Notes: generated by a model not told the origin, from the sequence alone. A stretch of DNA of 63,736 nucleotides, filler included, from Reclinomonas americana ATCC 50394 (GCA_048213135.1; 33 parts of 33 records of this genome joined end to end with filler, not necessarily neighbours in it), one strand, 5' to 3'. Shown: positions 24,622 to 60,000, numbered from the whole stretch's first letter. Program-made: numbers and translations.

Positions 24622-26654
24622 GCCACCAGTGCTCACACTGCTGCCTTGCAGGGTGCCAGTCGTCGTCACACTGCCGCCAGTAATCACACCGCCAGCCGAC
24701 ACGCCACCCGACGTGCTCAGCGTCGCGCCGTACACGTAGCCGCTGGAGCTGACATTGCCGCCAGTCACATTGCCACCAGTGCTCACACTGCTACCGGCCA
24801 CGGAGCCGGTGGTGGTGAGACTGCCACCAGTAATCACACCAGCGGCACTGATGGTGCCCGATGCGGTAATGTTGGTGACACTGAGGTTGGTCGCCGAGCA
24901 ACCGGTGAGGACACCGTTCTGCATCGAGCAAGTGCCATCCGACACAACCGAACCCCTGACGGAGCCAGTGGTGGTCAAGCTGCCGCCGGAAACGATGCCG
25001 CCGGACGTCAAATTACCCGACGAGCTGACGCTAAGCGATTGCAGCGTGCCCGCGGTGGTGATGCTACCGCCTGAAAGCAGGCCGCTGGTGCTAATGGTGG
25101 CACCCAGCACTGCTCCCGCAGTGGAGAAATTCAGGGCGTTGATGGCGCCCGATGAGCTTACAGAGCCGGCCGTCAGAGATCCACTCGTGCTGAAACTTCC
25201 AGCCGCAATCACACCAGCCGTGCTAATGGAGCTCAAGGAGCATCCGGTCAGCACACCATTCGAAATGGAGCAAGTACCGTCGCTCAGAGTGCGTCCGGTA
25301 ACCGAGCCCGAAGTGGTGAAGCTGCCGCCAAAGACGAGGCCGCTGCTGCTAATGTTGAGACCGAATACGGTACCGGTGGTGGAGACCGTTTGGCCGAAAA
25401 TGTTGCCAGACGAGCTGACGAGACCCGTGCGGATGTCGATAGCTGTCGTGGAGCCGAGGGTGGCTGCCTGCGCAAAGAGCTGACCGGATGCCGACAACGT
25501 CGCGGCATTCACAAAGCTGGAGCTGGAGATGCCGACCGCAGTAAGGCTGCTGCCGACCACCACCGCGCCATTGAGGGACGACTGCTGGAACACCGTCAAG
25601 GTGCTAGTTTGCACAGTTGGTGACGTGACCAGGCCGTTTGCTGACAGCGTGACGGCTTGCACACGACCGGCGGCAGAAAGACCACCAGTGGCAATGTCGG
25701 CCACAGAGAGCCACGACTGCATGACCACCGGGCCCAACATCAGCGACCAACCACGAACTGTCAGTGCAGAGGCATCCGTCACTGTGCCAGTAATGGCACT
25801 GCACGACGAGCCAGAGTAGCCAGAATTGCATGTGCACACTTGGCCAGTGGTCGAAGTAGCACTGCAATTACCACGCACAGGACTCGCAAAGGCTCCGCTG
25901 TGCGCATTTACAGAAATAAATACAAGCACCGTGGGGTCAGGGTGAGAGGGCACGTGCCACGTACCATTGAGTCCTGCTGCATGTGCAATTTACACCACCA
26001 AAAGTGGAAGTGCAAGTGCAAATACCGTTGGTGCAGCTCGCCACAGCCGAGGTACCGACAGGGCTGGTTATACGCACAATCCACCACAATGAGCATTCGC
26101 AAGAAGCACGCCGTCACCCCACAACACGTGCGCGCCACTTACCAAGAAGCCGGGCAGTTGCTCGTGCAAGCGCCAGTCGCTGCGTGCAGTTGAGAGTTGT
26201 CAGAAATGTGACCAAAAAAATGCAGGCGACAGTGGGAAGAACAAAACATTGGTTGCAAGTGGTTCCAGCAGGGCAACTGCAGACGCCGGCGCAACGAGAT
26301 CCGTAGAAGCCAGTGTTGCAAGTGCACACACCAGTCGTGGCATTGCAAGTACCGTTGTCGTTGCTGTGTTTATGGTGTGACGTGAGCAATGCGTCGCCGT
26401 TTCATCCAATTTTCTCATTCACATACCAGTTGTCGGCGCAAAGCGATGTCGACGCGCAGTTGGTACCGGAGAAGCCCGACAAGCATGTGCATGTGCTGCG
26501 TTGGTATCACGTGAGCGAGGATTCAGTGTGGTGGACCAACGAGGGAGGGAGAAAAAAACACAGCACCACTCACCCAGCACTGTTGCAATAACCCTTTTGC
26601 GTGCAGCCCGAGTCACCGGTCGCGCAGTTGTTGCAACCCACTTCACTGCATTGG
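24622..26654 (-). CDS. Spliced eukaryotic gene: EGF-like Cys-rich repeats followed by Gly/Ser/Thr solenoid repeats (both ends truncated)
   Basis: Exons 26574-26654, 26427-26495, 26248-26363, 26143-26179, 25965-26063 and 24622-25897 join in frame through GT-AG introns. Product includes CTCLSGFSGTNC, NGTCNATTGVCTCNTGFYGSRC and CTCNSGYSGSSC. Confidence 0.8.
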
Positions 26655-28173
26655 CTGTGGTGCGTGACGAGGAGGAGAAGGGGGGAGGTGGTGGCGCACG
26701 TCAATACACAAGCACAGGCATTCAGGATTTCAAGAAACAAAAACAAACCAATTGGGTCCGCCGAATNNNNNNNNNNNNNNNNNNNNNNNNNNNNNNNNNN
26801 NNNNNNNNNNTTAATTAATTAANNNNNNNNNNNNNNNNNNNNNNNNNNNNNNNNNNNNNNNNNNNNACCACCACCACGCACTCCATCGTGGGTGGGTGGG
26901 TGGGTGTGTGTGTGTCACGGCGGAGGATCATGCACCGGAGAAAAAAAGTACATGAGCCCCGAAAAGGGAGCCGCCGAGCGAATCTAACACACGCAAACAC
27001 AGCACGCACTGTCATTGTGTGCGCATGTGCGCGCGCACTCACACGCACTCGCACGCACGCACGTGAGAGAGTGAGTGAGTGGGTGCGTGAGTGGACAGCA
27101 GTTGAATCTGACGTGTGAGTGGTCGCGAGAGCCGTGTGAGAGTGGTTTCGCGAATGCCTATCGGGGAGATAAAGAAGAGGAAGGAACGGAGAGAGAGAGA
27201 GAGGAAGGGGGGGTGAAGGGAGTGGAAGCGAGAGCGCGTCACCCCCTGCACTGCGACAAGAGACAACACTTATTACTCTCCAGATTTGGCAGTCACGTGA
27301 AAGAACAACTCCGTCGCGCCACGAGCCACGAGTATGTGTATGTGTACAGACACTGAAGTGGTGGCGGCGGTGGTGCGCCGCATCTGCAGCGGAGGCAGAT
27401 TGAGGACCGCATTTGGATCGAATATGCAGTTTTGAGTTTGAGGCGTCGTCAAACAACGCCTCTCGTTGTTGTGAGATTCGACGACGAATGCGCATCGATG
27501 CACACCCCGCACCGGTGATGTCACTGCACTTCAATGAAGAACCACCTTGCACACAGCCGGCGTCAGTTAACTCGAGCTTGCAACCAGTTTTCTCGGAAGA
27601 ATGCTGGATATGGCAGAGATTTATTTAATATGTACAACAACAGTGAGTCCTCACGAAGCCACACTCCAAGCATCGCCAGCGACGTGCCACGAAAAGGAAG
27701 AGAAGAAAGGATCCTTTGGCCTTGGCTTGCAGGATTCGCTCGACAGTGACTTTGTGTGCGCGGGGTGGGCGAGGATTGAAGCAGCTTCGAAGCTCTGTCA
27801 TGTCCCAGCTCCGCCTTCCGGGGCGCCTGGCCACCGACGTTCCAGAGTCTCGCGGCGGTTGGCGGGGCCGATTTCTTGCTGTCGAATTCGAATTCGATTT
27901 TCGATATCGAAACAACAAAACACTTCATTCACCACATTCCAATAATGCGACAAATGTCCACAAACTCGCCATCGAGAAGTGACGTGCGAGCTTTTCTATC
28001 ACGTTCCAGGTTCTCCGTCGGAGGCCTCCATATTGTATTACTGGCGATACATTGCACAGCGCGGCGGCCGATGNNNNNNNNNNNNNNNNNNNNNNNNNNN
28101 NNNNNNNNNNNNNNNNNTTAATTAATTAANNNNNNNNNNNNNNNNNNNNNNNNNNNNNNNNNNNNNNNNNNNN

Positions 28174-31100
28174 CGTTGCCGGGCATGAGCATGGTGGCTG
28201 CCGGTGCGATTCACTCACGGCTGCACACTCCGCTGCCGATGTTACAGATGGCTCAGCTCGACACGGCGGCCGGCTCCGGCACAGTGCAGTTGTTGCGTTC
28301 GAATGTTTTCGAGGCTGCCGTGCTGCAACTCTCCATTGTGACGCCGCACAACACGACCTTGTCGTTGGTCAGCAACGACGCGCGCATGCCTGGCCAGACG
28401 TTGCACCTGAATGCATCGGTGGCGAGTGCATCGCTGCTCTCTGCCACGGTGGATGCGTCGGTTGACTGCCTGGTGCATGAACCGATGATCGTGCTTGTGG
28501 GCACGCTGCGTGCTGTTGTTGGCACTGACGGCTGGACACAGGAGCTGGCGACACACTTCAACGCCACCCAAGCCGGCACACTGCACGTTCTACACAGCCG
28601 CCTCGTCAACGACACGCAGCTGAATGCGACGCTGGCGGGGGTCGCCATGTGGCGCGGCGTGACTTCTGTCGTCGGTGAGAGTACGAGTGCTCAGTCGCAA
28701 CTCAACGTGCAAGTCGCCAGTGCATCGGAGTTGCTGGCCGTGGGTGTCTGTGACGTACGTACGGCAGGCTTATCGGTGCAGTCTGCGGATGCGCAGCAGG
28801 TCACCATGGCGCTGCAGCAGAGCGTTGTCAGCAACGTGACGGCCTCGCAGCTGGCACAGTCGTCTGTGTGGTCCACCCGTCGACTCACGTCTGTATCGTT
28901 GGCCACGCAATTGGTGGAAATCGACTCGTGGCGCGCTGACCTTGATGCTGCCGGTGTGGACACGCTGGCCTGGGAGTCGCATTCGAGCAGCAGCAGCACC
29001 GATGGCCACAGTGTCGGAGTTGATGCGGTATCACTCCACGCCAGAGTATCACAGGCGGCGCACACTCACTGGACGGTTGAACACCCGGCACACTCGGTGC
29101 ACGCAACCTTGGCCAGTAATGCCACTGTGGATCTGTACGACGCGGCGACGGCATTGCGCCAAGTTGTTCACGCACAGACGGACTCGTGTGCCTCGTGCAG
29201 TGTTGAGCTCGATGCTCAGCGGCGTGGCCAGTATGCAGTGGCTGAAGCGGCGCGCTTTTCGGGCCTCACGGCACAGCTTACGGGCGCACGTCAGTGCAAC
29301 ACGACAGTGTCGGCCCCGACGCTCCACAGTGCGACGGCAACCATCCAGCAACAGCAACAAGCCACGATCAGTGGCACGCTCGCTGTTGGCGGACCACAAG
29401 CTACTGTGCGCTTGTCGTCCATGCCGAATTCAGCTGGTATGTTGCCGCCTTCGACTCCGACAGTCACCCAGACGGCGACCGTGAGCAGCGGCGGTTCCTT
29501 CACGTACCAGGACGATGGCACCGTCTCGTTGCTGACCGCCAGCGCTGATTGGCTTTCATGGACTGGCTCGGCGACGACAGACAATACGGTCAACCCCGCT
29601 GGCTACGCCTCACTGGCGTACGTGGCCAGCAACACGACGGCTGCGACAGCACTTGTCGCCACGTGCAATGCGCGCCTGTCGGCGGCAACTGCACAGGTCA
29701 CCATTGCTGTCGACGGTCTGATAGGGTCGCTGGACGGCAGCGCGTCGGCTTCGACCACCGGATTCGCTGGCGCCACCGTGCGCGCCGTCAATGCGACATC
29801 GTGGACGGCCAACGCGTCGAGTTCATCTGCCTCGCTGACGGTGGTGTCGGTCGGCTATGCGGCACTCAACTCTACCGTGCATTCTCCGCTGGCGATCCCG
29901 GCGCCCGTCGACTCGCGTGGCGACTTTGGTGGCGCACTGTCAACTGGCTTCCGGCTGGTGACCACCGTGGACAGCGCCAGTGGCACGTCCATGAATGTGG
30001 CGGCACTGGTACCAACTGCAGGCCTCAGCGGTACCAGTGTCGTCGCTGATGGCGCTGCGTGGGTGTTCTCGTCGACGCTCGTGTCGCAGCAGGGCTCACC
30101 CGCCTTGGTGCAACACGCCTTGTCGGCACGAATCGCCGGCATCGGTGAACCCCGACAACTGAACTTTACGGCCTCCAGTGTGCCGCGCAGCACGACGCTG
30201 ACCGGCACTTTGGTGGCCACCACCATGGGGCCTGCCTCGTGGAATTCCACCTCCACCCGATCGGCCATGGCACCACAACCGCTCTCTGTCTCGACGGCGG
30301 TGGCTACTGGAGCGTGGACAGACGCAACGACGCAAGTGACGACAATTATTGCGCTGGCACCGGCAGTACAGGGCGCCACCACTGGGGGCATCTCGGTGCA
30401 GATGCGAGGTTCAAGCAGCACTGCCGCGTCGGTGGCACTGCAGCTGCTGCGACAACCACCGGTGGAGACAGGCACAAGCACGTCTCCACTGCAGTCGGTT
30501 GCGGTTACGGACAGTGGTTTCTCTGTGTCGCTGGACTCTGCTGCGTGGACGGTGTTGGACTGGGGCAGCGATGCCTTGACGGCAGCCGCCGTTCAGTCGT
30601 TTGCGCTAAGCCTGGCTGGCGGTCGCTCAAACGTCGAGTTTGTGAGCCCTAATGGACCACAATTGCCCAACGGCAAGTACCGCTCACTCTCCTTCGACAT
30701 TAGCCGGTCCGTGCTCACAGGCGTGTCATGGCACATACCACCCACCATGGCAGTGCGCGTTCCCACGCAGCAGCCAGTCCTCGATGCTGACAGTCGCACT
30801 ATTAAGTGGACGTCTGCATCATCTTCTGCGACGAGTGACGACTTTTGCATTAGTGCTCTTCTGTGTGAAGACCAGTCGTGGCGCTACGAGAAGAACTATG
30901 GCTCATTCGGCTGTTACAGCACGCCGGTGCGCAGTATGTGTGGTGTGGTGGCTACTGTGGTGCTGTTGGGTGCGGCCGGTGAGCTGCAATGCTACACCCC
31001 GAACCGTGGCTCCCCGCTGTTGTTGCAGTCGCCGCCTGGTCTGACGCCCGTCCCCGAGCTGCCGTTGGCCACGCGAGCAGCCTCGCTCAACATTGTATTC

Positions 31101-31320
31101 TACTTGCTCTTTGTGACTGCGGTGGCCGTGTTTGCCTGGGGTGTGTATTGGACTTTCCGGCCTCTGACCGTGGCTGCTCTGTCAAGATGGCGGTTCGGCG
31201 GCGACGTGCTGCTTGACGAGTTTTACACGGCGTGGATCCTGTCCGCGCTGGCTGGTCTCATAAACAACTCACTGGCGGTCGGATGGGAGCCGCAAACACG
31301 CGCCGTTCTCGATGCCTCGA
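28174..31320 (+). CDS. Large Ala/Thr/Ser/Val-rich ectodomain membrane protein, partial
   Basis: ORF over 1000 codons with no apparent intron; Cys-containing segment, then the hydrophobic helices IVFYLLFVTAVAVFAWGVYWTF and FYTAWILSALAGLI. Confidence 0.7.
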
Positions 31321-31420
31321 NNNNNNNNNNNNNNNNNNNNNNNNNNNNNNNNNNNNNNNNNNNNTTAATTAATTAANNNNNNNNNNNNNNNNNNNNNNNN
31401 NNNNNNNNNNNNNNNNNNNN

Positions 31421-31800
31421 TCATGCTGACGCTGTGGGTGACGTGGATCTTTGTGTGCCCGCTGAGCTCCATGCTGCTTCTGTGGTGGTGGTTGCGCAGA
31501 ACATGCTTTGCACCTGTAGAGAACCGTATGGCGCGACCAGGTGATCGCGGCCAACAGGTCAACGTCGCGGTCGATGGGAATGTGCAGCAACGCATGCTGG
31601 ATGCGCCAGACGTCGACGATGAGGTGCAACATGATCTTCGCTTCGGTGGCGCTGGCGGAGAAGATGAGGGGGATGGAAATGACGGCGACGATGGTGGTGG
31701 AGATGTGGTGCAACGTTATAGAAAGCAGCCTGTCTCGATGGGGACATATGGGGGCGGAAAGTCGGCGGCTGCGGATCCACCGTATGATCAATTGGATTGA
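31421..31800 (+). CDS. Membrane protein C-terminus (last TM helix + acidic tail), possibly the same gene as the previous contig
   Basis: LWVTWIFVCPLSSMLLLWWWLRR, then a Asp/Gly-rich tail ending YDQLD-stop. Confidence 0.5.
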
Positions 31801-32239
31801 GTTAATGTATAATGATGAAGTGCTGAGGTGGAAGGGAGGAGAGAGGGAGGAGGGGAAAGGGAGGGGGAGGGGAGGGAGGAAATGGAGAGGGAGGATGGGA
31901 AAGGGAGAGGCAAGAGAGGGAGGGTGACAGGGAGGATGGGAAAGGGAGACGGAGGGCTGGTGAGAGTGGCGCGCGTGGCAAAAAGGCGTGGTAAGCAAGG
32001 TACATCATCGAGACGTTGAAGTAGAGCAACATCGGGCACCCCATTGGCACCGGAGACGACATGATGCCGAAAAAGACAGCAGTGTCTGTGACTTTACAAG
32101 AGACAACCAAGGGTCTCGAAAGAGGGCACACTATTGCCTTCGCAGGCACACTTGGCATCCGTGGCCGCAACCCAACCGAGGCGCTGCCTGTCACGGGGAA
32201 CGGTGAGTGACCGAGGAGGTAAGGGCGGAGGAAGGGCGC

Positions 32240-33000: not shown

Positions 33001-33247
33001 GGGAACATCGTAACGGACAACACAGGGAGTGCCATAGATCGCCATACAATCGAATTATTCTGTGCAAGAACACAGCGAACGATAAAATCGGAAGGAGAAG
33101 GGTAGCACGCACAACGAGAAGCAGGGCAGGTGTGCAAAAAGGACATGNNNNNNNNNNNNNNNNNNNNNNNNNNNNNNNNNNNNNNNNNNNNTTAATTAAT
33201 TAANNNNNNNNNNNNNNNNNNNNNNNNNNNNNNNNNNNNNNNNNNNN

Positions 33248-33948: not shown

Positions 33949-34032
33949 GTCCGGGAGCTCGGAGCGTGCCGCTCTGCGACGGGCGCGCCACCCGATGCGG
34001 TCGACGGCGAGTGGTTCCGGCATCCTTGGGGG

Positions 34033-34367
34033 ATGGCCAAGCAGCTCATCGTCAACCTGTTCGAGATGGCGACGCCGGGGCACATCACTCACGGACTGTG
34101 GCGTCAGCCCGACAACCAGCGCGAGCGCTATGCCGACATCTCGTACTGGACCGAGCTCGCGCAGGTCGCCGAGGCCGCCGGGTTCGACGCGATCTTCCTC
34201 GCCGACGTCGTGGGTGCGTACGACGTGTACGACGACGGTTTCGAGCCGGCGCTGGAGCGCGGGCTGCAGATCCCGAACATCGATCCGCTGCTGCTCGTCG
34301 CCGCGATGGCGGCCGTCACCGAGCACGTCGGCTTCGGCGTGACCTTCTCCACGACGTACGAGCCGCC
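34033..34367 (+). CDS. NtaA/DmoA-family flavin-dependent monooxygenase (LLM class), 5' part
   Basis: GLWRQP, YWTELAQVAEAAGFDAIFLADVVG and TFSTTYEPP motifs. Confidence 0.9.
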
Positions 34368-37823: not shown

Positions 37824-37934
37824 NNNNNNNNNNNNNNNNNNNNNNNNNNNNNNNNNNNNNNNNNNNNTTAATTAATTAANNNNNNNNNNNNNNNNNNNNN
37901 NNNNNNNNNNNNNNNNNNNNNNNGTGGGCTGTAG

Positions 37935-38865
37935 GTGCAAGCCGATGGTGACGAGAACACCATTCGCGATATGATTGTGGAGAAGCTGGCCCCGTACCCC
38001 ACCATCTCGTTCGCCGAGATCGCCGAGGCGGCGTTCAAGAACGGCAAGCACAAGCTGGCCATCATGCTGCTGGACTTTGAGCCGCGAGCCTCCAACCAAG
38101 TCAAGCTGCTGGTCAGCATGAACCAGCCAGAAATCGCACTGGCCAAGGCCGTGGAGAGTGGCGATGCCGATCTGGGTGCGTTGCTGCATTCGCGTGTGTG
38201 TTGTTGTCTGGTTGGAAGCTTCCCACTCACTCCTCACTCCTTTTCTCCGTCTCGCCAGTGTACTTTGTCATTCTGAACCTCAAGACACGCCACTCGGACC
38301 CCGTCATGTTCTTCCGCTCACTGGCGGGCAAGCCGGCGGCGCGCAACCTCATGATCCGCTACTGCCGCGAACGAGGTGCGTTGGCATGGAGTGCGTGTGC
38401 GTAGAATACGGTGGCACTAAAAAACTCGTCGTCGCGCAGACAAGCAACTGTTGTTCGATTACTACAACTTTGAGCACATGACCATGGAGACGAGCGCAAT
38501 GCACATTCAGGATGCGTTCATGGAACCGGTGCGTGGAATCCTCTCTCGCACGATGTTGTTTCTATTCTTCTGACGTGACGCTCGATGTACAGGATGAGAG
38601 CGCACAACGGAATCACCTGCAGCAAGTGGTCACACAGTTCAACTCTGCAGGTCGTGATTACTTGCCACTGGTCAAGGTCGGTGCTGGCGTCTTCTTTTTT
38701 GTTGTCACTGTGCCTGATGTCTCACTCTCTCCCGCAATGAGCAGGCAACCGAGGAGCAAATCCGACTGGCACATTTCCAGCGCGAGCTTGAGGAGTCGAC
38801 CGAGGAGAACATTTTCGCCCACACGTCGCTCATCGACACGCTTTCGATGGCCGTTGAACGTGGAC

Positions 38866-38910
<45 letters not shown>

Positions 38911-39480
38911 GAGTGCGAGTATGCGCAGTTTGCATTCTGACTCGTCTCCGTGCGTCACAGCTGAAGAAAGCGATCAAGATCAAGAACGAATTCAAGCTCA
39001 GCGACAAAAAGTTGCGTGTCGGGGCAATAGTAGTCCCACCAGGGCGGTTGGTGATGCTCACAAACACTGTCGCAGATGGTGGTGGTTGCGTCTGCGATCA
39101 CACGCTCGAGTGCTGGACTTTGAGGGCATTGAGGATATGGCCAAGGAGAAGAAGTCGCCCATTGGGTGGCAGCCGTTTGTCGATGTTTGCTTGAAGGCAC
39201 GGAGACCGCTGGAGGCCGCCAAGTACATACCGCGCTTGCCGGATCTGCTCGCCCGTGTACAAGCGTTCGCCAACATTGGGTTCGTGCCTGTGGCGATGAG
39301 CATGGTTTACTTCTGTGCGCTGAGACGGAGAGATTGTTGTGCGCGCACAGATTCTTCCAGGAGGCCGCCGATGAGGCATTCAGAGGGCGGGATTTGGGCC
39401 TGCTGGAGCAGTTGCAGGAGAAGGCACCGCGGCAATTCCAGGCGGCCATCACCACCATGATGCAGCAACTACGGGGTTAA
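37935..39480 (+). CDS. VPS16: Vacuolar protein sorting 16 (HOPS/CORVET), C-terminal exons
   Basis: Exons 37935-38175, 38259-38375, 38440-38528, 38593-38676, 38745-38867, 38961-39010, 39076-39279 and 39351-39480 join in frame. Motifs ISFAEIA, LLDFEPRASNQV, ALAKAVESGDADLVY, FKLSDKKWWWLRL, KKSPIGWQPFVDVC; TAA stop. Confidence 0.92.
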
Positions 39481-39610
39481 GCGAGCGCGGTAATGACGGT
39501 GGTGGTGGCTGGTTGTTGTTGATTGAGTGGCGAGTAAACACAGAAAAGCAAACAGTGATTCATTGAGATGGCAAGTTAATGTTTGTTGATAATAGAGAAC
39601 CAGGAGATTT

Positions 39611-45760: not shown

Positions 45761-48597
45761 GGCGTTGGAGCCAAAGTTCTGCGGAATCGTCCACTGCAGG
45801 AAGATGTTGTTGAGGCCGTACTGCGTCACGACCAGGCTGGTCGGCGGGTTCGGCACGACGCCAGAGGCAGCCGGAGTGGTGAAGTTGATGGCAGTGCTGA
45901 ACGCGCACGTCACCGGGTTGGCGGTGGTGCCAGCCGGGTTGAAGGGCGAAGTCGGGAAGGCAATCGAGAACTGGTTGCTGGCGCAGATCTGCAGGTTGAC
46001 CGAGGTGCCAGCCGGCAGGCCAGTCACGTCAATGTAGTAGGTCGACAGGTTGGCGTTCCACGATCCAGTGCCGGTGCCGTTGGTGGCCGGGATGGAGCTG
46101 GTGTCAATGGCAACGGCAGAGCCGGCAGTGGCAGCAGTCACCGACGAGGCGCTGGTGGTCGAGTACACCACACGGTAGGCGCTCACGTTCGGAGTCGGGG
46201 TCGACAGGTTGCCCTGAGTGGCGCTTGAGGTGGCAGTGTTGGAGCCGCCGACGCTGATCGGGGTCGAGAAGTTGAGGCGCACGCCAGTCGAGAACAGGCG
46301 CGAGTACGCCACACCAGTGGGCGCAGCCGGCACGGAGCCGTTGTTGTCGGTGGTGGCCTGGAGGGAGCCGGCCGCCGAGGCAGTGGTGTTGTTGTTCACA
46401 GTGACGCGGATCTTGGTCGTGTACTGCGTGGCAGCCACAAAGTTGTTGGTGGTGCCGCTCACAGTGAAGCCGGTAATCTGCTGGTAGAAGCCAGAGTTGT
46501 ACGAGAACAGGCCGAAGAACGAGGTGGCGATGGTGCCAGCGCCAGTCGCACCGGTGGTGATGGCAGGCTGGTCAGTGCTGGCGTTGGTCACCGTGTAGGC
46601 GGCAGTCGGCGCAGCGGTGGTGTCGCCCGTGCCAAAGGTGGCCGGGTAGTTGAAGGCGACGACAAAAGACGTCGAAGTGACCTGGTCCACAGAGCCAGTG
46701 TACGGAGCCACTGCGTAGCCAGTCGGCGTGGCCGGCGCACCCGACGCCAGAGTCACAGTCACGGCGGTCGAGAAGGTCAGATTGGCACCGTTGGCACCCG
46801 GAGTGCCGCTGTTGTTGTTGTAGGCCGTCGAGATGGCGCAGCTGGTGCCAGTCAGGCCAGTGACCTTGACGAGCACGCGGTTGCGCGACAGACCAGAGCT
46901 GCCGACCGGGATGCCAAAGTCGGTCAGGTCGGCAATGCTGGTGACCACCGTCACCGCACCGGTGCCGCAGTCCGACTTGACGTACCACGACGGAGCACCG
47001 CCAATCACGCCCACATTGGCCGCCACACCCTCCCACTCCACCCACGCCGAAGTCGACGTGACGTAGCGCAGGGTCGACGACAGCGTCGGCGCCGCAGTCG
47101 ACACCTTGGTGGCATCGGTACCGCTGGTGGTCAGAGTGCCGCTCCAGGGAGCAGCCGAACGGTTGACCTGCGACTCGGTCCACACGTTGATGGTGTAGCC
47201 CTGGCCAGTGGAGGCGCTGGCAGCGGCGAGCGTGCTCAGCGTGTAGCCGCGCCACGTGCCAGACGACACGCTGGCAGCGGTCACAGTGGTGGGACCAGCG
47301 TCGCCAATCACGAACGCGCGGTTGGCAGTGGTGCCGGTGGCGAGGTTGGTCGTCTGCAGCACAGTGAGCGACGTGTTGATGTCCTGGAAGGTGCTGGCAG
47401 TGGCACCAGGGGTCTGCGACGAGAGACCACCCTGGCCGACAAGGTCAGTCGGCAGCTGCAGCCAGATGGTGGCCTGGGTGCTGCCAATGTAGTAGATGGC
47501 GTTGGAGCCGGCAGTGGCGGCCGGGCCACGGGCTGTTTAGGAGGAAAGGAAAGGAGAGAAGTGTGAGCTTTCAGGTGGCGAGAGAGAGGGAGGGAGGGAG
47601 GGGAGGCGCAACTGGTGGCGGTGTAGAAGTTGGTGCCAGTCGGCGAGGCGGCGGCGGCCGAGTTGGTGCTGGCCGCGTTCGTGACGGAGAAGGCGACCTG
47701 GGGGAAGTACTGGCGGCCGGGGAGGAGGCCAGAGAGGGTGACCTGCCAGCCGTCGAGGTGAGCAGTGACGGCTTGGTTGCTGTTGGCAGTGGTGGTGAGG
47801 CCCGAGGCGACAGCGACACCGCGCACATTGGCAGTGCCAGTGGCAGTGAAGCCGTAGACGCTGGCAGCAGACGAGGCGTTGACGTTGGCCTGGTTCGCAG
47901 TGTACTGCGCACCGCCGGCGGTCAGCGTGATGACGAAGGTCAGCGAAGTGTCGGTGATGTCGATGACGGTGATCGAGTTGGCGGCGGTGAGGGCACCAGC
48001 GTTGACGCCGACACCAGAGGCAACACCGCCAGCAGTGTTCGGAAGAACAATGGCGGCACCGCAGCAGAAGAGCGGCGCAACGGTGCCACCACTAACAAGA
48101 GTCCACTGGGCACCAAAAATCTGGGTGGCAGCGACAGTAGCAGCAGCATTCATGCGGACAGCCACCACGAACTTGGAAGCCGTCAGGGCAGTAGTCGAGG
48201 TGTTGCCGTCAAGGTACTGGGCATCGGTGGCAGCAGTAATGCCAGCAGCGCCCGTAAGGCCGTAAGCGAAGGTAATGGCATTCACGCCACCAACCGAAGT
48301 GCCAGTGGCGGCAGTCGCCACCACACCGCGCTGAGTCGGCGAGCCAACGTTCATCACCACAAAGTTGTTGCCGAGCGTGACGTATCCATTGACGTCGGTC
48401 ACGGCAGTGCCAGAGCGGTTGAACCAGATGGCATTGGTGGGAGCAGTCACAGCAAGGGAAGTGACGAATGTCATGGCGCCGTTGGCAGATCCACTGGTGG
48501 CGTTCGTCACCACAAGGTTCACAGTGCCGGCCGCGGTGGCGTTGAACGTCACAGTGCCAGTGAGGTCGCTCGCGCCCATCGACACGGTGCCGGTGGC
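45761..48597 (-). CDS. Large Thr/Ala/Gly-rich fibronectin type III repeat protein, partial; one intron at 47533-47612
   Basis: VTLSGLLPGRQY, PAAPTGV, IDVTGLPAGTSVNLQICASNQ and PNPPTSLVVTQ..IFLQWTIP are FN3-like motifs. Confidence 0.75.
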
Positions 48598-48697: not shown

Positions 48698-50010
48698 TCC
48701 AGCGACGCCATTGGCGCCGAAAGTGTACGGAGTCGCACCAAAGCCACCGTTGCCGATGACCGTGGCAGCAGCCGTGTTGTAGAGGCAGTTGATGGTAGTG
48801 CCACCAGTCACTGCCCAGCAAGCCACCAGAGTCGGGGCAGCAATAGTCGGGTTGGCAGCAGCGCTGAGGGTGAGAGTCTGCTGCGAGGCAGTGTCGAGCG
48901 CGGCAGTGCCGTCGCCGTTGGCGTTCTGAGCGAGCACACGGACGCGGTACGTGGTGATGGCGCCACCGTTCTGCGTCGTCGGCAGCGCCGAGATCAAGAC
49001 GTGGCCACCAGACACACGGCCAAAGGTCGTGTCGGTCACTGGCGTGCCAGTGGGCGTCGAGAAGGCGTTGTACAGCACAGCGCCATTGTTAAACGCCGCA
49101 GTCTCCACCTTCCAGCCGGTGATGGCACCGCCAGTCAGCTGAGGGGAAGTCCACGAGATGAGGCCGCCAGCCGAGGCCGCAGCCACAACAGTCGGCTGTC
49201 CGACCTTGTTCGGGGACTGCTTGCCGTCCTGGGTGGTCACCGTGGCGGTCTGCGAGAGAAGAGGAGAGAAGGGTGGGGTGAGCAAGCTGCTTCGCACAGA
49301 TACACACAACATTTCACAATGACAAAAAGACGCAACAGAGCTCCACGGGCCAAAGCCCCACTGGCCCACAGCGCGCGCGCGCACCACGTAGCCGGTGCTC
49401 GGCTGCAGGATGCTGGACGAGGCAGTGGCACCAGTGCCAGACACCACGCACGTCTGCTGCGAGAACGGACCAGCACTGAACGGGATGATGGCCGCATTGG
49501 CGTTGTTGCCGTTGATGGTCTCAGTGTAGAAGGTCACCGGAGTCCAGGCGGTCAGCGAGCTGCCAGTCGAGCTGCGGATCTGCACCTGGAAGAACGGAGT
49601 CTGCAGCTGGTTGAAGTTGGCGACGTTGCCGGAGCCCGTGGCGCCAGTCTGGCCGAGCTTGATCGGCGGGTAGAACGACAGCACGAACGAGGTGGCCGAC
49701 GTGTAGCTGATGGCCAGGTTGGTCGGCTGGCGCGGGGTACCGCCGAGCGGCACCGTCACGACCTGCGACGAGGTGCGGACGCCCTCACCGTACGAGTTGA
49801 CCGCGTAGGCCTGTTGGTGGGGGAAGAGAGATGAGATGAGTGTGGGGATGGGAGGAGGGAAGAGAATGGGAGAAGAGAGACGCAACAGCGATGGTGTACT
49901 GCACGCCCTCCTGGATGTTCTGGTCAAAGTAGCGCAGAATCATGCCGTAGCAGCCGGCGCCGCCAGAGGAAGGACCGCCATTGGCCGCAATGGCGTTGAC
50001 CGACGAGCAC
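48698..50010 (-). CDS. Fibronectin type III repeat protein, partial; introns at 49250-49336 and 49811-49886
   Basis: YTIA|AYAVNSYGEG, LQPSTGYVVRARAVGQWGFGPWSS|TATVTT, ISWTSPQLTGGAITGWKVE and YRVRVLAQNANGDG. Confidence 0.8.
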
Positions 50011-50367: not shown

Positions 50368-50420
<53 letters not shown>

Positions 50421-51585: not shown

Positions 51586-51949
51586 CGGAGAGGTGGTGCG
51601 TGCGCAGGTAAGAGCACGAAAGAATAGAATTCGCGGGCTTTTTGCCCACTTGAAGTGACACCAAAGTCACGTGGGTCAATTCCGACGTTGCGGGAAACGC
51701 GAGCACACTCATAGTCCACTCACCGTTGCGGTTCGCATTCTCCTTTCCCTCCTCTTCCTCCTCATCCTCCTCTTCATCGCCCACTTCATCTCGTTTCTTC
51801 CTCCTCTTCTCACACAAGATGCCCACGCGCGGTGCTGGTGGAATGTCACGCCACTCGACGATGCAATCCTCGTCGTCATCCTCGATCACAGTGGACTCAC
51901 GTCGCACTGCGTCATCGTCGCCATCCAGGAAGTCAGAGTCGTCAATCAT
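51586..51949 (-). CDS. Hypothetical eukaryotic protein, acidic N-terminal exon
   Basis: MIDDSDFLDGDDD...EEEEEGKENANRN followed by a GTGAGT donor; no family recognised. Confidence 0.35.
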
Positions 51950-52169
51950 ACCCCGCGCAGACAACGACCCATGCTATGCCAACAACGTAGACGCGTGCGA
52001 ATAAAGCGGGACAAGTGATTTGCGGGACTTGTGCGCAACGACGTTTTCGTGTGCTTCGAAAGGAGGGTGAGGGGTGGCTGGGCACTCAAGACTGCTACAT
52101 CAAAAAATAACTGCTTCTGTTGCTCTTATTGTCGGTGAATGAACTGCCTTCGCTTCGTTCACTCACTCC

Positions 52170-53923
52170 TCAATCATCTTCGGTAGCCATCCAGCAGAAA
52201 CGCGCACAGAGAAAGAGATGATCCGAACCGTGCGCCGCATTGGGGATTCCCGGGTACGGAGGCTGCGTGTCTGCGCGCCCCACAAATCACGTCAGCTTCT
52301 CCCTTTCCACTCTTTGCCCCACTGCCTCTTCCTCCTCATTTTCTCACCTGCAGCCTCAATGTCCTTGATGCCCGGCATAGGCACAAAGGCGGTGAGACGG
52401 AGTCCGTCGGTCACCGAGGCCGATGCTTTGCTGCCGCCGGGTGTGGTCGGTGTGGCCGGACTGAGGTCGCCATCGTGCGCTGTCAGCGGCGGTGGCGTGT
52501 ACCACATGTAGTCCACCGTGCCGGTGTCGCGAGGACTCCACAGGGTGAATGGTGGTTCGTGGTGCGAGCGAGGCGTGCGGTTCGGACCGTCGTGGGTGGC
52601 CGGACACGGTATCACCTCAAAGTCGCGTTCCTCGTGCTCCAGCGACACCGGATGCGAGTACACGCTGCGGAGGGGCAACGAGTGCTCCAGCGGCAGTGTC
52701 GACAGGTACTGCGTTGGATCCCACTGCACGTCGGGGTGAATGGTGGGCACGCTACCCGAGTCAAGGTAGTGATACACCGCACTGTGGAAGAGGATTAGTG
52801 TCGTGCACACACACACACACACACACACGCAGTCAGACACACACACACACACGCGTCGTACCTCCAAGGGAACGAGTTGAAGTCGCCGCAGAGGATCACT
52901 GGCGGCGGAGCGCTGCCGGTCACCTTCCACAGCACCTCGCCGTTGGAGTGGAGAAAGCGTTGCAAGGCCTCCACCACTTGCACAGCTTGCCACAGTTTCT
53001 GCACATCGGAGACGGGCGTGAGGCAACCTAGCAGCGGCACGACACATTGCAGAAAACACACACACACCAGGTCCGGGTGCGTGTGCGGAAAGTACAAGTG
53101 GGTCGAGGCCACCACCACGAGATTGTTGGTCAGCATATCACGCAGCAGCACAAACAGCGCCGAGTTGCTGAACCGACTGCCTGCGTTGGCAAAGCGCGCC
53201 AGCACGGCAGGATCAGCGTCCTTCAGCGTCGCCTCGGCATGCCTCCGCAAATCCAGCGTCGCGCTCGCAATGGTCTCGAATCTACGCCAGCGCGCGCGCG
53301 CACGTGTGTGTGAGTGAGACGCACTCGTGGCAGTCACAGCACACACAGAGACGCGCTCGCTCGCACCGATCACGCTTGAACAGCACCGCGTTGCCATCGA
53401 TGCTGCCCTCCTCATCGGTCCTCTCCGCATCGCGCTCCACGTACTCGCCCTCGTACCCATGCTCCGCAATGTACTTGGTCAAGGCATCGTCCTCTTCTTC
53501 TGCATCCACCTCGCCTGCACTCACCGCCATCCAGTGCGCAAACATGCGTCGCTCCACCTCTTGCATGACGAGAATGTCGGGCGAGAGGCGAGCAAGGTCC
53601 GCGGCCATGAGCTCCGCGCGTTGCTTCCATGGCAGATGTTCAGGCAGGAAGAGCCACATGTCGACATCGGCTTGCTTGGTGTACATGGGCTGTACGTATA
53701 TGAGATAAGAGTGAGAGAATGCTCAATCAGTTGTCTCACACGTGATGCAATGCACACAACTGCAAGAATGTTGTGTGACAGCACAGTGAACGAGGAGGTT
53801 TCTGTGGGCACGTGCGCACAGCAGCATCAGTGTGCGTGTGTGTGCGTTTGTGTGTGAGAGAGACACACACACAACATACGCACCAGCCTCCCCTGGCTCA
53901 TCAATCTGCACCCACTCTCTCAT
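52170..53923 (-). CDS. EEP-superfamily nuclease (CCR4/nocturnin/Angel/PDE12 group), multi-exon
   Basis: Spliced product contains FTVLSHNILAPMY, DILVMQEV, DGNAVLFK, STHL, ILCGDFNS, TVDYMWY and GSDH. The start is uncertain. Confidence 0.88.
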
Positions 53924-54034
53924 GGGAGTTTAACAAACGATTTTCACTCTCACACACGCGCTCACTCTCTTTGCTAATGGTACACCTAACACGGGCGGGC
54001 GAGCGGGCGGGCGGGAGTTGCGCGAAACTGAACT

Positions 54035-56702
54035 TCACAGCAAGTCCTGTGGATTTTGGTTGCTGTCGCGCGTCTCGGTAACAAACGGGTGCTGCAGAAG
54101 CAGACTTGCATCTGGTCGTTCCATGGGATCACTGTGTATCGCGCCAGAGGAAGGGCGAGTGAGGGGCAATCGATTGATACAGCTGTGAAACGTCGCGCGC
54201 TGCGTAACATGCGGAGACACCGGTGCAGGAAGTCTTGCGCCAGTGGTGGCAGGTCGGACGGTACTCGTGGCGTCTCTCTTGAGAAGAGCTTGAAGGCGAT
54301 GGCAAACTGCAAACAAAGGGCGAAGTGGTGAGTGCGGTACGACTTGAATGAGATCTTACGAGAGAGTGGCGAACCGAGTCCGGCAGCTCGGGGAACGGGC
54401 GGTTGCCGCTGCACGAGGTGGGGGGAAGAGGTAAGTCTGTGGTGGTAGGTGAAGCAGACAAGCGGTTCACGAAGACGCACGTTAAGAGTTCGAGAACCGT
54501 GCAGCCGAGTGACCTGCAATCGCGTGGTGAGGAAAACAGGCATGTAATCATCAGCGCGCACAGAAACCGCCGTCCACGCACCAAATGTCCACCTTGGCAC
54601 CTGCGGGACTTGACACGATCAGCAACAACGGCGGAGTGGACTACCGGCCTCTCAGGGAGACGACCTCCGACGCAACTGTAGCGAATCCTTGACGGTTTCT
54701 TTTCTTGCAACTGGAACGAGGTTAGCGGACCGACGGCGGCCAATGCAGCGGAGAGGGAGATGGAGGGCGAGGTGGCGGAGCCGATAAGCGATGGTGTTAC
54801 GGTGCCCGTGTTGCTGCCCTCCACTGGGCAGATGACCTCGCGCGGCAGGTATGCCATAGAGCTGATGTCGCCCGTGTTGGTGCACGTGATGCCCGCGTTC
54901 TCCAGACACCTGTTCAGACCAAAATCTGTGCGGCGGGGCGGCGGCGGCGGTTGCGTGACACATTGGGAGGATCAAAGAGCGGCAGCAGCAGCAGACACAA
55001 ACCGGCCAGCTTCACCAACGTGCGTCCGCCGTCGTGCGTCAACAGAACATTCGATGGCTTGAGATCTACATCCCCGTCATGAGAAACGAGTGGCGCACAC
55101 ACCAGACTCCTCACATACCTCGGTGAATCACTCCACTCCGGTGCAGGAATTCAATGCCCGTCAACATCTGAACCCCGCGCACCAGATTTAGAATCTCCGA
55201 CACACATTTTCACATCACACACGAGGCAAGTGGCGCACCTGTTTCGTGTAGTTTCGCACCGCGGCCTCGGGCAACCTGCGATCCTTGAATCGCCACGCCA
55301 GCTGACTCAGCGAACCACCGCTGCAGTATTCCATTACTGCATCATTCGCCTCGCGTGTCAGCAGCACACACACACACATCGAAAAACATTGCCCAAATAC
55401 AGAAAAACAATGGGCGGAGATACAGAAAAACTCCTCTCCCCCACACACACACCGACTTGCATCTCGTCGCCGCCGACCGGCGCCACACGATACACCGACG
55501 CCACATTCGGATGCACGACGGCCTCCATTACCGCATATTCTCCAGCAATGGTCGCCGCCTGCTCATTCGTGAGTGCACAAAAAGAAAAAGCACCCCCCAC
55601 CGCACCACCAAGGAAGCACACCGTGACCACGGCCGGATCCACATGCAACGCCACTCTCTTCACCGCCACCATCATGCCTGCAGACGGCCCGCTCGATATC
55701 ACCGCATCATGAACCGTCGCAAATGTTCCGCGCCCCAGCTCCCTTGCTGCGCACTCAGCCGCTCAGCACTCGACTCACCACTCACCCAGCACAGCACACC
55801 AAGCGACGCAACAGCTGAGCTCATACACCAGCTCCACGCCACGCTCCACGCGTGGTGTCTCACCTCCACCTGCGCCCACTGCGCCTCCGCGACTCCCTCT
55901 CCGCGACAAGGACGACGACAGAGACGAGCCCGAGGAACCCGACGATGACGCGCCCGCCGCAGCTGCTGCTGTCACAGCCGCAGCCGCCGCAGCTGTTGTT
56001 GCCGTCACCTTGCTGCTGCTCATCTGCTGCTCCTCCTGATCATCTTCATCATCATCAACATCTTCCTCCTCTTGGTCATCATCATCATCATCATCATCAT
56101 CATTGATAGTCGCGCTCGTCACAGTGGTCTCTGTGAACGCCAGACTGTGGTACCGGTGATGCCCGCTGACGTGTCCCTCTTGTTGCTGTTGCTGCTGCTG
56201 CTGCTGTTGTTGTTGTTGTTGTATAAGCTCGGGGTGCAAGTTGTGCAAGAGCCCTGGCACTGCGCCCACTGATGACACCATCGACGCCGACGAGCGTTGC
56301 ATAGTGCTCCCGGGGATCGACTGTATATGCGACGCACAATAGTGAGCGCGCGAGTGTGCTGACAGGGCAGCGACGAGTGTGCTGACGAAACGATCATGGA
56401 GCCACTGGAAAGGTCCTCGCCAAACATCGTAAGAGATTGAGAGAGTGACAGACTCGCGCGCGCGCGTCTCTCTCACTGCTCTCACACACACGAATGGCCG
56501 CGGACGTGTTGCCAGAGCACCCGGGCGAGCTGGTGGCACAGGTGACACTGACGCTGTTTGGCATTGGGTTTGGGGGCTCTGCCTCTGCTGGATCGTCCAT
56601 GTCGTCCTCCTCCTCTTCTTCCTCGTTGTTGTCTTCGGTGCCGGCGGAGCGTGCGCCATGTAATCGCATAGTGCAAGGCTTGTTGTTTGGCGATGGCGCC
56701 AT
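54035..56702 (-). CDS. Ser/Thr protein kinase (STE/MAP3K-like) with a low-complexity N-terminus, multi-exon
   Basis: Spliced product contains ELGRGTFATV, VAVKR, HPNV, MEYCSGGSL, IHRDLKPSNVLL, VKLADFG, KVDIWSLGCTVLELLTGNRPF and DPMERPDASLLLQHPF. The start is uncertain. Confidence 0.88.
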
Positions 56703-57066
56703 GATCACAGAGTTGCGCGCGCGCGTGTGTGTGTGAGAGAGAGTGTGTATCAGTTGCTCATGATGATGACGATGATGCAGGGGTCTGCGTGGTGGCGACG
56801 ATGTGCATGAGCGTGTGACGGAGCATGTTGCGTGTATGTCGCACCTCTTGCCTCACTTACCACGCATGCTCATGTCGTCTCTCTCTCTCTCTGTTGTGCA
56901 GCAACTGACGATCTTTCATCTGGCGGTGATCTGCAACGGGACCAAGCTGCTGAAGGTGTTGCTGGCNNNNNNNNNNNNNNNNNNNNNNNNNNNNNNNNNN
57001 NNNNNNNNNNTTAATTAATTAANNNNNNNNNNNNNNNNNNNNNNNNNNNNNNNNNNNNNNNNNNNN

Positions 57067-60000
57067 AGCGCAGAGTTCCCCGAGACATGAGATGCGGCAA
57101 GGAGGGACTGCGCTCCCACCAACGCTCCACCACCAGTTACGTGTTCACCAGAAACGGAGTTTTTCGAGATGATACATCCAGCTGCCGAGCTTGATGCGTC
57201 GAGCAGCATTGCGCCACCTCCATGAGAGCGACCGGCAATGACAAGCGGGACAGACGATTGCACGGAGTTGCCAGTCAGGGTTGACGAGGAAACCGCGGCA
57301 CCGTCAGCGGCGAGCACCGCACCGCCACCGCAGAATCCACCTGAAGGATATAGCGCATTCCCAGCACCAGCGTCCTCCACGCGGTTGTCGACGAACTGAG
57401 AAGCGGAGAGGTATGAGGGCGAATTCACCAACAGCACGGCACCACCACCGTTGTGGTTGCTGCCTTGCCCATTGAGAGTGTTGCTGAGGCCACCCACACC
57501 GTCACGGAGAGACTGGTTGCCGACAAATGTGCAACTGGAAATGTTGAATGTGCCCTGAGAGCGGAGATACGAATGGGGGAGTGAGTGGGCTTCTAGCACG
57601 ACAATATGAGCAACAGAAACGATGCAACTGTTGTTGTCGACGGTGCAACCAGCAGCGCCGCTCCTCCACCATTGAAGCCGCCAAAAGATGCACCGATCGT
57701 GCTGTTGAAACCGCCCGCACCGTTGCGCCACGACGTGTTGTTGAGAAACAGGGACTGGCTGAGCGTCTGCAACGTTGAGGTGAGAGACTCAGGACTTTGC
57801 AAAGGCGGATGCACTCAGTGACAGGCAGACAGACCAGGAAGGATGCAGAATTTGGGGTGGAGAAGACAAGCAGTGCGCCTCCGCCGGAGAATGTTGAAAG
57901 GCTGCTTCCCGACGATGTATTTCCGCTTCCCCCGTTTCCTGTGTGAACGATGAGTAAGTGTGATTTGATCATAGAAAATTCTGACGATTGCACGGCAAGA
58001 GTGGGGATCACCATTGCCGCCAGCGGAGTTGTTGAAGAAGATGCAGCCGGAAATCTGTTTGAGCAGCACAACGCGACAAGTAAATGGCAGTCTAAGTCAT
58101 TAAGAGTAGACGAAAAGCAGAACCTCGAGAGTGCCAGGAAGAGCGACCAAGACGGCGCCACCACCACTGGCTGACCCGGTGGCATCGCCGCGGTTGGCAC
58201 CGCTGCCTCCAACAGAATTCGATAAAACCACATTGGAGAGGAATGAGCAGCCCCGTAAAACCGCCTGTGCAAGTGTAAATGTAAGGTCAGGTAGTTATGC
58301 AGATAGACGATGAAGCGAGAAACCGTGTTAGTGTTGCTCCCGAGTGATACAAGCAATGCGCCACCTCCATTTTGAGAACTCGATGCGTTGTCAGCGAGTT
58401 GACTCGATCCCCCATTTCCATTTGTGCTGGCCTCATTGCTCTCGAACCGACAACCCTCAATTATCTATTTGTGGGATTGTGTGAAAATCGGATATACTAT
58501 GACGACAACAAGCACGTGGGTACGAACCAAGTTCGATGTCGATCCGGCGACAAGCGAGACTAGCATGACTCCACCCCCATTCATGCTGCTAGAGGCACTG
58601 GCTGAAACTGTGTACGGCGACGCACGAGAACATCCGCGTGTTAGAATCGTAAACCACGAGATCGCAATGCGGTTGTCGTCGTGGTGGCGTAGGTGGCCTC
58701 ACCCGCAGAGCTGGAGCCGCCATTCCCATTGTTATTTGCAGCATTCGACGTGAAGGTGCAGTTGCTGATTACCGACGTCTGCAAAAACAACAACAACAAC
58801 AACAACACCAACAACAACAGACGCACACAAAGTGAGAGTGACACGAAAACAAACAGTCTCTCAACTCTTTCCAAGCTTGTGCAAACATGCAACCAACAAT
58901 AGGAAAGAGAGAAAGAGAGAGTGAGAGAAAGAGAGAGAGAGAACACACCTGACTGGTAGAGGCACCGGCATAGACCAGCATGACACCACCACCATTCACG
59001 CTACCGCTGCTATCCGCACTCGTACCGCCTACAAGCAAAAAGCACACATCAACCAGGTCAAACCGTACGTGCAATCAACGTCACACACACATTCGCTCTC
59101 ATACACGCATCGTGAACCGGAACATAAGACCAACATGCACCGCACGCACACACACCAAGTGTCATTCATATTACTCACCATCTGCACCACCATTTCCATT
59201 GTAGCTTGCAGTATTCGACGTGAAGGTGCAGCTGCTGATGGTCTGCGACAACGACAACTACAGAGCACAACAGCAACAACAACAACAACAACAATAACAA
59301 CACGAAGAAGACGCACACAAAGTGAGAGTGACACGAAAACAAACATACTCTCAACTCATTCCAAGCTTGTACAAGCAGACAGCATAGCAATAAGAGAGAA
59401 AGGGAGAGAAAGAGAACACACCTGATATGTTGAGGCATAGGTTAAGATCAGCATGAGACCTCCACCATTCGAGTAACTGCTGCTATCCGCACTCGTACCT
59501 GCTACAAGCAAAAAGCGCACATCAACCAGGTCAAACCGTACGTGAAATCAACCTCACACACACATTCGCTCTCATACACACATCTTAAGATCTTAAACCG
59601 GAAAAGAAGAACAATATGCGCCACACGCACACGCTAAGTGTGATGCATACTTCTTCTCACCATTTACACCACCATTCCCATTGTAGCTTGCAGTATTCGA
59701 CGTAAAGGTGCAGTTGCTCATGGCCTGCAACAACAACTACAACAACAACACAATAAAAGCAACAACAACAACAACAANNNNNNNNNNNNNNNNNNNNNNN
59801 NNNNNNNNNNNNNNNNNNNNNTTAATTAATTAANNNNNNNNNNNNNNNNNNNNNNNNNNNNNNNNNNNNNNNNNNNNCGCACACAAAGTGAGAGTGACAT
59901 GGAAAACAAACAATCTCTCAACTCTTTCCAAGCTTGTGCAAACATGCAACCAACAATAGGAAAGAGAGAGAGAGAGAGAGAGAGAGAACACACCTGAAAT

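Follow-up and report, generated by a model that had tools for sequence, protein, structure and literature searches.

How is a 5' splice site recognized when the G that usually stands at the fifth position of the intron is found at the sixth, behind an extra T? This question is raised by a stretch of 63,736 bases from the assembly GCA_048213135.1 (Reclinomonas americana ATCC 50394), called the window here at its full length. The window is not a single locus, being made of 33 contigs of 1.0-5.6 kb each. A GTT..G start, as found in this material in roughly one short intron in four, is rare in well-studied organisms. Pairing of these donors in a register shifted by one base appears to be the best-supported explanation, and a probability of roughly 0.55 can be attached to it.

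Forty-five introns, all of them GT-AG, were curated in eight gene models covering about 20 kb of one mixed assembly. They were sorted by their donors into class A, which has G at +5, and class B, which has GTT, a base other than G at +5, and G at +6. Class A comprises 31 of the 45 introns and class B comprises 11, and the three that belong to neither all lie in one gene, the PMP-like gene. The class A consensus reads G/GTGCGT, with the slash marking the cut, and its commonest hexamers are GTGCGT (9/31) and GTGTGT (4/31). In class B, +5 is C or T in 11/11, and the exact heptamer GTTGCGT is present in 5/11. A preliminary description of the window had listed ten introns starting GT-T-NNG with A or T at -1, the last exon base. 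Each of the ten intervals runs GT...AG on the strand assigned to it, with the hexamer and the -1 base reported. The same description held that most introns have G at +5 and usually G at -1, which agrees with the counts of 31/45 and 29/31, and that the extra T with G at +6 is linked to a last exon base other than G. This link is strong: G stands at -1 in 29/31 introns of class A and in 1/11 of class B (Fisher p = 4.7e-7), A or T being found there in 10/11 class B introns and T in 6/11.

Class B is also frequent. Its share of 11/45 has a Wilson interval of 14-39%, and it is present in all eight gene models, on six contigs, alongside class A in six of the models. The proposal of a frequent second donor class thus holds within the window, for junctions taken from gene models. 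An excess of GTTNNG starts over independent positions was likewise borne out on the 45 introns, 11 being observed and 1.29 expected from pooled independent positions (binomial P = 4.5e-8). Donors with G at +5 lack G at +6 (0/31 have it), and of those without G at +5, 11/14 have it (Fisher 3.6e-8). Positions +4 to +7 of class B (G 7/11, C 8/11, G 11/11, T 8/11) mirror positions +3 to +6 of class A (G 20/31, C 16/31, G 31/31, T 23/31). In the non-bacterial contigs, 5 of the 12 occurrences of the class B heptamer and 7 of the 17 of the class A heptamer stand at a curated donor, and the two heptamers predict donors about equally often; the bacterial contigs hold no copy of the former and two of the latter. 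The eleven class B introns and one similar intron are given below, with scores in bits under a matrix built from class A, applied in the canonical register or shifted one base downstream.

39011-39075, plus strand: class B intron of 65 nucleotides (nt), aaa/GTTGCGT, Vps16 gene; canonical -15.3, shifted +9.7
54601-54676, minus strand: class B intron of 76 nt, aca/GTTGCGT, kinase gene, at RYS/AKVDIWS; canonical -17.0, shifted +8.1
54132-54208, minus strand: class B intron of 77 nt, cat/GTTACGC, kinase gene, at CLR/IDPMERP; canonical -11.9, shifted +3.1
55747-55812, minus strand: class B intron of 66 nt, gct/GTTGCGT, kinase gene, just upstream of the glycine loop; shifted +7.4; moderately supported
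53690-53760, minus strand: class B intron of 71 nt, gca/GTTGTGT, EEP nuclease gene, at NILA/PMY; shifted +6.5; ambiguous
47533-47612, minus strand: class B intron of 80 nt, cca/GTTGCGC, gene FN3a; shifted +6.4
49811-49886, minus strand: class B intron of 76 nt, gct/GTTGCGT, gene FN3b, at YTIA/AYAVN; shifted +8.0
49250-49336, minus strand: class B intron of 87 nt, tct/GTTGCGT, gene FN3b; shifted +6.9
41924-42017, minus strand: class B intron of 94 nt, act/GTTTCGT, geneS, joining two frames; shifted +6.7
26180-26247, minus strand: class B intron of 68 nt, aat/GTTTTGT, EGF-like gene; shifted +3.8
58055-58123, minus strand: intron of 69 nt with GTT..G by its letters, gag/GTTCTG, PMP-like gene; canonical -6.8, shifted -1.5
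57555-57628, minus strand: class-B-like intron of 74 nt with A at +6, aca/GTTGCAT, PMP-like gene; canonical -12.5, shifted +1.8

Further copies of the class B heptamer occur outside any gene model at 56827 (plus strand) and 4568 (minus strand), with a YAG 75-81 nt downstream.

The register in which class B is read was assessed with the class A matrix, which covers -4 to -1 and +3 to +9 and in which the consensus of class A itself stands in for U1. In the normal register, class B donors score -13.9 bits on average, below GT decoys taken from exons (-6.8, n = 810). One base downstream, their mean rises to +5.9 bits, compared with +4.4 for class A in a leave-one-out test; 10/11 score +3 or more, and among exonic GTT decoys only 1/122 reaches the class B median shifted score. 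Class B therefore reads as the class A heptamer G-G-T-G-C-G-T with T as its second letter, apparently cut before the first G.

The preliminary description pointed to shifted/bulged U1 pairing in mammals and proposed the shifted register as a major second donor class; an extra U could be accommodated by a shift or by a bulge. With a bulge, U1 would pair with +1 and +2 normally, one U of +2/+3 would bulge out, and +4 to +7 would pair as +3 to +6 do. The two arrangements differ in what faces the last exon base, which a bulge leaves opposite C9 of U1. Under a bulge, the preference for G at -1 should consequently equal that of class A. Under a shift, the last exon base falls where position -2 of class A would be; G is found at that position in 4/31, and at -1 of class B it should therefore be rare. 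For the class B bases at -3 to -1, the log-likelihood is -43.6 under the matrix slid by one base, -68.1 under the matrix in place and -47.1 under the background. The shifted register is favoured over a bulged U because both the depletion of G at -1 and the log-likelihood of the exon bases fit the slid matrix. Bulged-nucleotide U1 registers were reportedly treated by Roca et al. in 2012. Among the alternatives a bulge nevertheless survives best, as an unlikely one: deletion of one T from GTTGCGT yields the exact class A hexamer, registers with a single bulged nucleotide, at +3 (or +2) among other places, have been reported from human 5' splice sites (PMC4856993), and the pairs to standard U1, counted by hand, are as many as for the shift. 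What speaks most directly against it is that it predicts G at -1 no less often than in class A (29/31), and that the value found is 1/11.

Under the shifted register, most 5' splice sites would be defined by the heptamer G-G-U-G-C-G-U and cut after its first G, and about a quarter of the introns would carry U as the second letter, giving G-U-U-G-C-G-U. Both forms might be bound at the same place by a factor acting early in recognition, for which the 5' end of the U1 small nuclear RNA (snRNA) is the likeliest candidate, the first G of a class B intron taking the partner normally held by the last G of the exon. The catalytic spliceosome would then cut at the only available GU, one base further upstream. 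The reader would probably be an ordinary U1, and the cuts would presumably fall where the gene models place them. In this way, the +1 shifted register of rare human sites might here form a regular second class. It is more tentative, at slightly below even odds, that recognition and cut site are routinely uncoupled, with one reader binding G-K-U-G-C-G-U and the cut made at whichever GU is offered, in about a quarter of introns genome-wide.

Several points weigh against the shifted register. For the exon bases, its advantage over the background is only 3.5 nats, and the T at -1 in 6/11 class B introns would not pair with position 10 of U1. A hand count against standard U1, with its 5' end taken from PMC4856993, gives about 5 pairs for both models, with one further pair for the shift expected when -1 is A; because these counts are equal, the choice between shift and bulge depends on the -1 statistic. 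The sample comprises no more than 45 introns from 8 genes, 3/11 class B introns come from the two FN3 genes, and the intron proposals derive partly from a scoring scheme that favours both donor classes. Among the eleven class B introns, those at 53690, 55747 and 58123 are ambiguous or weak. The contigs may possibly not all come from one eukaryote. Lastly, three donors of the PMP-like gene are a poor fit in both registers, and recognition may be looser than two classes. In this respect the preliminary picture of two classes was too tidy, as one gene has three further donors with G neither at +5 nor at +6.

The same gene contains the intron that had been flagged as a possible counter-example, GAG/GTTCTG at 58123. 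Its letters are confirmed; its scores do not place it in the class. The intron 58055-58123 groups with the weak donors of the PMP-like gene, of which acg/GTTTCT and atg/GTGATC carry G at -1. For 57555-57628, an in-frame alternative, ctg/GTTGCA, lies 21 nt upstream. The PMP-like gene (57069-58464, minus strand) consists of F..N and GGGA[LV]LV repeats with one short intron per repeat, which we take to resemble the repeats of polymorphic membrane proteins.

A second alternative, slightly less likely than a bulge, is that class B has a dedicated reader. A second U1 variant, another snRNA or a protein would match GUUGCGU in the normal register, and two classes would have two readers. The preliminary description's suggestion of a variant U1 or U6 snRNA, or of altered U1C, Luc7 or Prp8, is speculative. 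The class is sharply defined, 5/11 being exactly GTTGCGT, and frequent; variant U1 genes are reported from humans. Irimia and Roy raised the idea of two spliceosomes for the intron sets of Ostreococcus, although in the portion of their paper relied on here a single spliceosome was judged likelier (PMC2483917). An Rfam scan of the window at the gathering score gave no match to U1, U6, U5 or any other snRNA, and at E <= 5 only five chance-level rows of microRNAs or small nucleolar RNAs appeared in the 63,736 bases, none of them an snRNA. The acceptors and branch-like signals also speak against two readers. A CAG acceptor is present in 43/45 introns, and 20/31 introns of class A and 7/11 of class B have CTCAC or CTGAC at a distance of 9-39 nt from the acceptor. 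Since these 3' signals are common to both classes, which lie side by side in the same genes, they point to one spliceosome serving both. Moreover, the one-letter relation between the two heptamers makes a second reader unnecessary.

The interiors of the two classes differ in pyrimidine content, which is 0.670 in class B and 0.595 in class A (chi-square p = 0.0008). The class B value falls to 0.612 when the FN3 introns 47533-47612, 49250-49336 and 49811-49886 are removed, and the excess is for this reason mostly a property of the FN3 genes.

Whether class B is a product of the gene modelling depends on how its junctions were called. The gene models are:

37935-39477, plus strand: Vps16 C-terminal gene (Pfam Vps16_C), 7 introns, 6 class A and 1 class B
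54035-56704, minus strand: MAP3K-like kinase gene, 11 introns, 8 class A and 3 class B
52170-53923, minus strand: gene for what we take to be an EEP (CCR4/nocturnin-like) nuclease, from its motifs NILA, GDFNS and SDH; 6 introns, 5 class A and 1 class B
39614-42307, minus strand: secreted protein gene, geneS, 8 introns, 7 class A and 1 class B
24622-26654, minus strand: EGF-like Cys-rich gene, 5 introns, 4 class A and 1 class B
57069-58464, minus strand: PMP-like repeat gene, 5 introns with the donors ctg/GTCTGT, gag/GTTCTG, acg/GTTTCT, atg/GTGATC and aca/GTTGCA

The remaining two, FN3a and FN3b, encode FN3-rich surface proteins and have class B introns only (3/3). All eight models translate without an internal stop, and the shortest of the 45 introns has 53 nt. 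Many introns were proposed by a dynamic-programming pass that rewarded both donor patterns and penalised others. Its output was used as proposals only, and the final introns were checked by frame, by homology and by listing alternatives, namely every in-frame GT-AG pair up to 60 nt to either side of the class B and unclassified donors; they are not independent of the class-aware prior. A dynamic program based on codons only, with self-training, was rejected, as the FN3 genes dominated it and boundaries were misplaced. Eighteen proposed introns were dropped as spurious or unverifiable, two of which have the GTT..G pattern: 49413-49481 (ccc/GTTCAG), inside FN3 coding sequence, and 39476-39614 (ggg/GTTAAG), which begins on the Vps16 stop codon, both spurious. 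The others are 40340-40408, 49139-49204, 29290-29371, 29406-29488, 30753-30875, 56359-56491, 54028-54086, 53906-53957, 52092-52207, 51907-51983, 39674-39776, 20355-20467, 27756-27808, 58640-58692, 60358-60490 and 60543-60651. The count also leaves out a probable class A intron at 26655-26748 (ttg/GTTTGT), whose upstream exon is cut by a contig end, and a donor near 51725 (acg/GTGAGT) whose acceptor is not clear.

It is improbable, more so than a dedicated reader, that some or most class B introns are misplaced, or that the class was inflated by the search, and that the true donors are ordinary. The junctions are gene-model predictions, the scoring rewarded GTT..G donors, and the two spurious proposals just named carried that pattern. 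The individual junctions differ in how firmly they are placed. The preliminary description regarded several of them as pinned by conserved motifs, and this holds best for SDKKWWW in the Vps16 gene. Across the intron 39011-39075, SDKK/WWW aligns without a gap to three fungal Vps16 proteins (P0001-P0003) and to three intronless relatives from metagenomes, which read FRLSDKHWAWLR or FKMSDKHWAWLR at this point. This gapless alignment to six relatives fixes the junction to the residue, and within +/-60 nt neither a class A nor a class B donor offers an in-frame alternative. The whole spliced product aligns to the three fungal proteins with no gap at any junction. A search with exon 1 gave three proteins, the best with 61% identity (Batrachochytrium), and three metagenome relatives (L001-L003) with about 32% identity over the aligned region overall and 51-52% in the best segment. 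These relatives lie on GC-rich contigs (0.62-0.70) and are intronless where the Vps16 gene here has seven introns.

In the FN3 genes, 47533-47612 has no in-frame GT-AG alternative within +/-60 nt. At YTIAAYAVN, the intron 49811-49886 restores the spacing Y..A.N..G.G, which is also seen in two further FN3 repeats of FN3b, and this motif too can be said to place its junction. The third, 49250-49336, is in frame and stop-free and has 41 in-frame alternatives; the frame does not demand it, and it rests on its pyrimidine-rich composition and signal score. A scan of genome contigs with the 590-residue FN3 exon found no relative.

The motifs RYSAKVDIW and CLRIDP belong to the kinase, where 11 introns are required for a clean MAP3K-like catalytic domain. 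Removal of 54601-54676 and 54132-54208 restores Y..KVDIWS and CL..DP..RP, which we take to be the regular kinase spacings. Read-through of the former changes the frame, and for both introns the in-frame alternatives remove conserved residues or need AAG acceptors. The structural support is weak: the exons flanking 54132-54208 match different kinases in the PDB (GCN2, E = 1.5; MAP4K3, E = 0.11). One of six kinase exons matched in Pfam (exon 2, PK_Tyr_Ser-Thr profile from position 5, E = 0.013). With the N-lobe frame, a protein search was empty and a full HMMER scan returned two matches, both repeat proteins and not kinases. The third kinase intron, 55747-55812, is in frame and contains a stop. 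Its in-frame class A alternatives are gag/GTGAGA, 51 nt upstream, which would make an intron of 117 nt, and ctgg/GTGAGT, which would make one of 39 nt, the shortest curated intron having 53 nt.

The motif NILAPMY of the EEP nuclease leaves its junction ambiguous. The intron 53690-53760 has an in-frame tandem class A donor 3 nt downstream, gtt/GTGTGC, which would insert one Val. The nuclease model had no Pfam match, and its exon matched no protein in a homology search. The intron 41924-42017 of geneS is fixed by the reading frame only and has one class A alternative, ctc/GTTCGT (124 nt, C at -1). The intron 26180-26247 of the EGF-like gene is likewise fixed by frame, through its neighbouring exons and the strong neighbour intron 26064-26142; it has two in-frame alternatives, the sole one with a class A or class B donor being itself class B. 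The weaker calls within class B are 49250-49336, 55747-55812 and 53690-53760. Taken together, 8/11 class B introns alter the reading frame and two of the three in-frame ones hold a stop, and the five best-fixed introns alone still give class B 5/45, which argues against an artefact.

Some genes show further features. All five introns of the EGF-like gene are in phase 1, each just before Cys, Gly or Ser, and a long Ser/Thr/Gly-rich exon follows the Cys-rich module part. In geneS, a 63-nt intron at 41642-41704 (minus strand, tct/GTGCGT) is in frame and stop-free inside an open frame of 719 codons, with a CTGAC branch-like motif and a CAG acceptor; only one other class A donor likewise lacks G at -1.

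Other origins of the odd start were rejected. A GC-AG donor 3 nt downstream (GTT/GCG) was judged at 39011 and 54132 only. At 39011 the extra residue breaks the gapless alignment DK.[FW][WA][FW] to the six Vps16 relatives, and at 54132 it breaks what is presumably the conserved kinase spacing L..DP..R. Introns of the U12 type, spliced by the minor spliceosome, have the long conserved donor RTATCCTT and a branch site near the acceptor. No donor among the 11 shows A at +3 with TCC behind it; the hexamers are GTTGCG, GTTTCG, GTTACG, GTTGTG, GTTTTG and GTTCTG. A sequencing error adding a T would leave class A sites with a base other than G at -1, against the 29/31 with G. Descent of class B from a mobile intron family (introner-like elements), with an inherited odd start, is very improbable, since, although the first eight letters are identical in 4/11, the mean local alignment score of the interiors is 8.36 in class B (55 pairs) and 8.28 in class A (465 pairs), the maximum is 18 in class B and 28 in class A, and class B lengths vary between 65 and 94 nt. 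The top score of 28 is caused by microsatellite runs. Runs of (GT)n/(CA)n are found in the introns 38868-38960 (plus strand), 52782-52861, 55337-55452 and 41924-42017 (all minus strand).

The composition of the window bears on the source of these introns. Its contigs are joined by 32 identical spacers, each made of 44 N, a 12-base block with stops in all frames and 44 N (e.g., 1309-1408 and 37824-37923). At least 13 contigs, with a GC content of 0.64-0.69, have frames without interruption whose Pfam domains are of bacterial type, including ABC-transporter solute-binding and permease domains, proline racemase, Rieske ring-hydroxylating dioxygenase, aromatic amino-acid lyase, DUF222 and luciferase-like monooxygenase. 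The remaining contigs, with a GC content of 0.51-0.64, include eukaryotic genes split by short GT-AG introns. The assembly is a mixture of a eukaryote and a bacterium, because at least 13 contigs bear bacterial-type genes. An origin of class A and class B in two different eukaryotes was rejected, as both classes are found within the same genes. Three contigs (4045-7673) contain long frames of tandem repeats of about 22 residues (e.g., LPPLIKPDELTVPDCMLPTVVT in one reading), open on both strands and without any notable Pfam match. The stretches 58500-59777 and 59878-61983 are repetitive, with long runs of the AAC/CAA type, translated as poly-N or poly-Q, and repeated units of about 500 nt; there gene finding gave no convincing model.

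If the shifted register is the correct explanation and its frequency holds genome-wide, it would be a normal mode of splice-site definition, used by 14-39% of donors under a clean sequence rule. In such a genome, the fixing of the cut site after the departure of U1 could be studied on many natural examples, and, if recognition and cut are uncoupled, it would be a high-frequency system for studying how U6, U5 and Prp8 pick the cut without U1. Gene prediction would be affected too, as about one intron in four would escape a donor model that had learned to expect G at +5. A search of the full-text literature, mostly without subscription journals, brought up no paper on a lineage in which GTT-shifted donors are frequent.

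The closest counterpart is found in humans, whose U1 is known to pair in a shifted register (Tan et al. 2016, PMC4856993, citing Roca and Krainer 2009). In the part of that paper used here, the validated non-canonical registers together account for 1.5% of 201,541 sites. Human +1 shifted sites likewise have GU at the cut, a base other than G at -1 and +5 and a good fit one base over, and they are likewise cut one base upstream of the position that the register indicates (PMC4856993). They are rare, whereas class B makes up 11/45 introns of the gene models. The consensus differs as well, GUUGCGU being related to a GC-rich GUGCGU and the human counterpart to GUAAGU. Bulged and asymmetric-loop U1 registers share with class B an extra U after GU and a consensus that resumes one base later (PMC4856993). 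Such sites keep the pairing at the exon end, however, and class B has G at -1 in 1/11. For delta-3 tandem donors, non-canonical U1/U6 registers have been proposed, and in the available portion of that study STAT3 exon 21 is an example (PMC11162779). The intron 53690-53760 likewise has two in-frame GUs 3 nt apart (GTTGTGTGC), but this arrangement is limited to 1/11 class B introns, the others being without a nearby in-frame second GU.

The canonical introns of Mamiellophyceae have the donor AG/GTGCGT(G) and the branch motif NCTGAC (PMC3879977, PMC2483917), and class A shares this unusual GTGCGT, together with a branch motif of the CTGAC type. The sections of those two papers drawn on here describe no GTT class. 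Furthermore, Mamiellophyceae are intron-poor according to these sources, whereas the multi-exon genes of the window have 5-11 introns, and nothing places the source organism among them. A more radical case is that of appendicularian tunicates, in which about 95% of introns are not GT-AG and a shifted U1 register is mentioned as a possibility in the part of the report used here (PMC13326754). These animals share with the introns of the window a lineage-wide departure from the donor rule, but here 45/45 introns keep GT-AG and the register alone differs.

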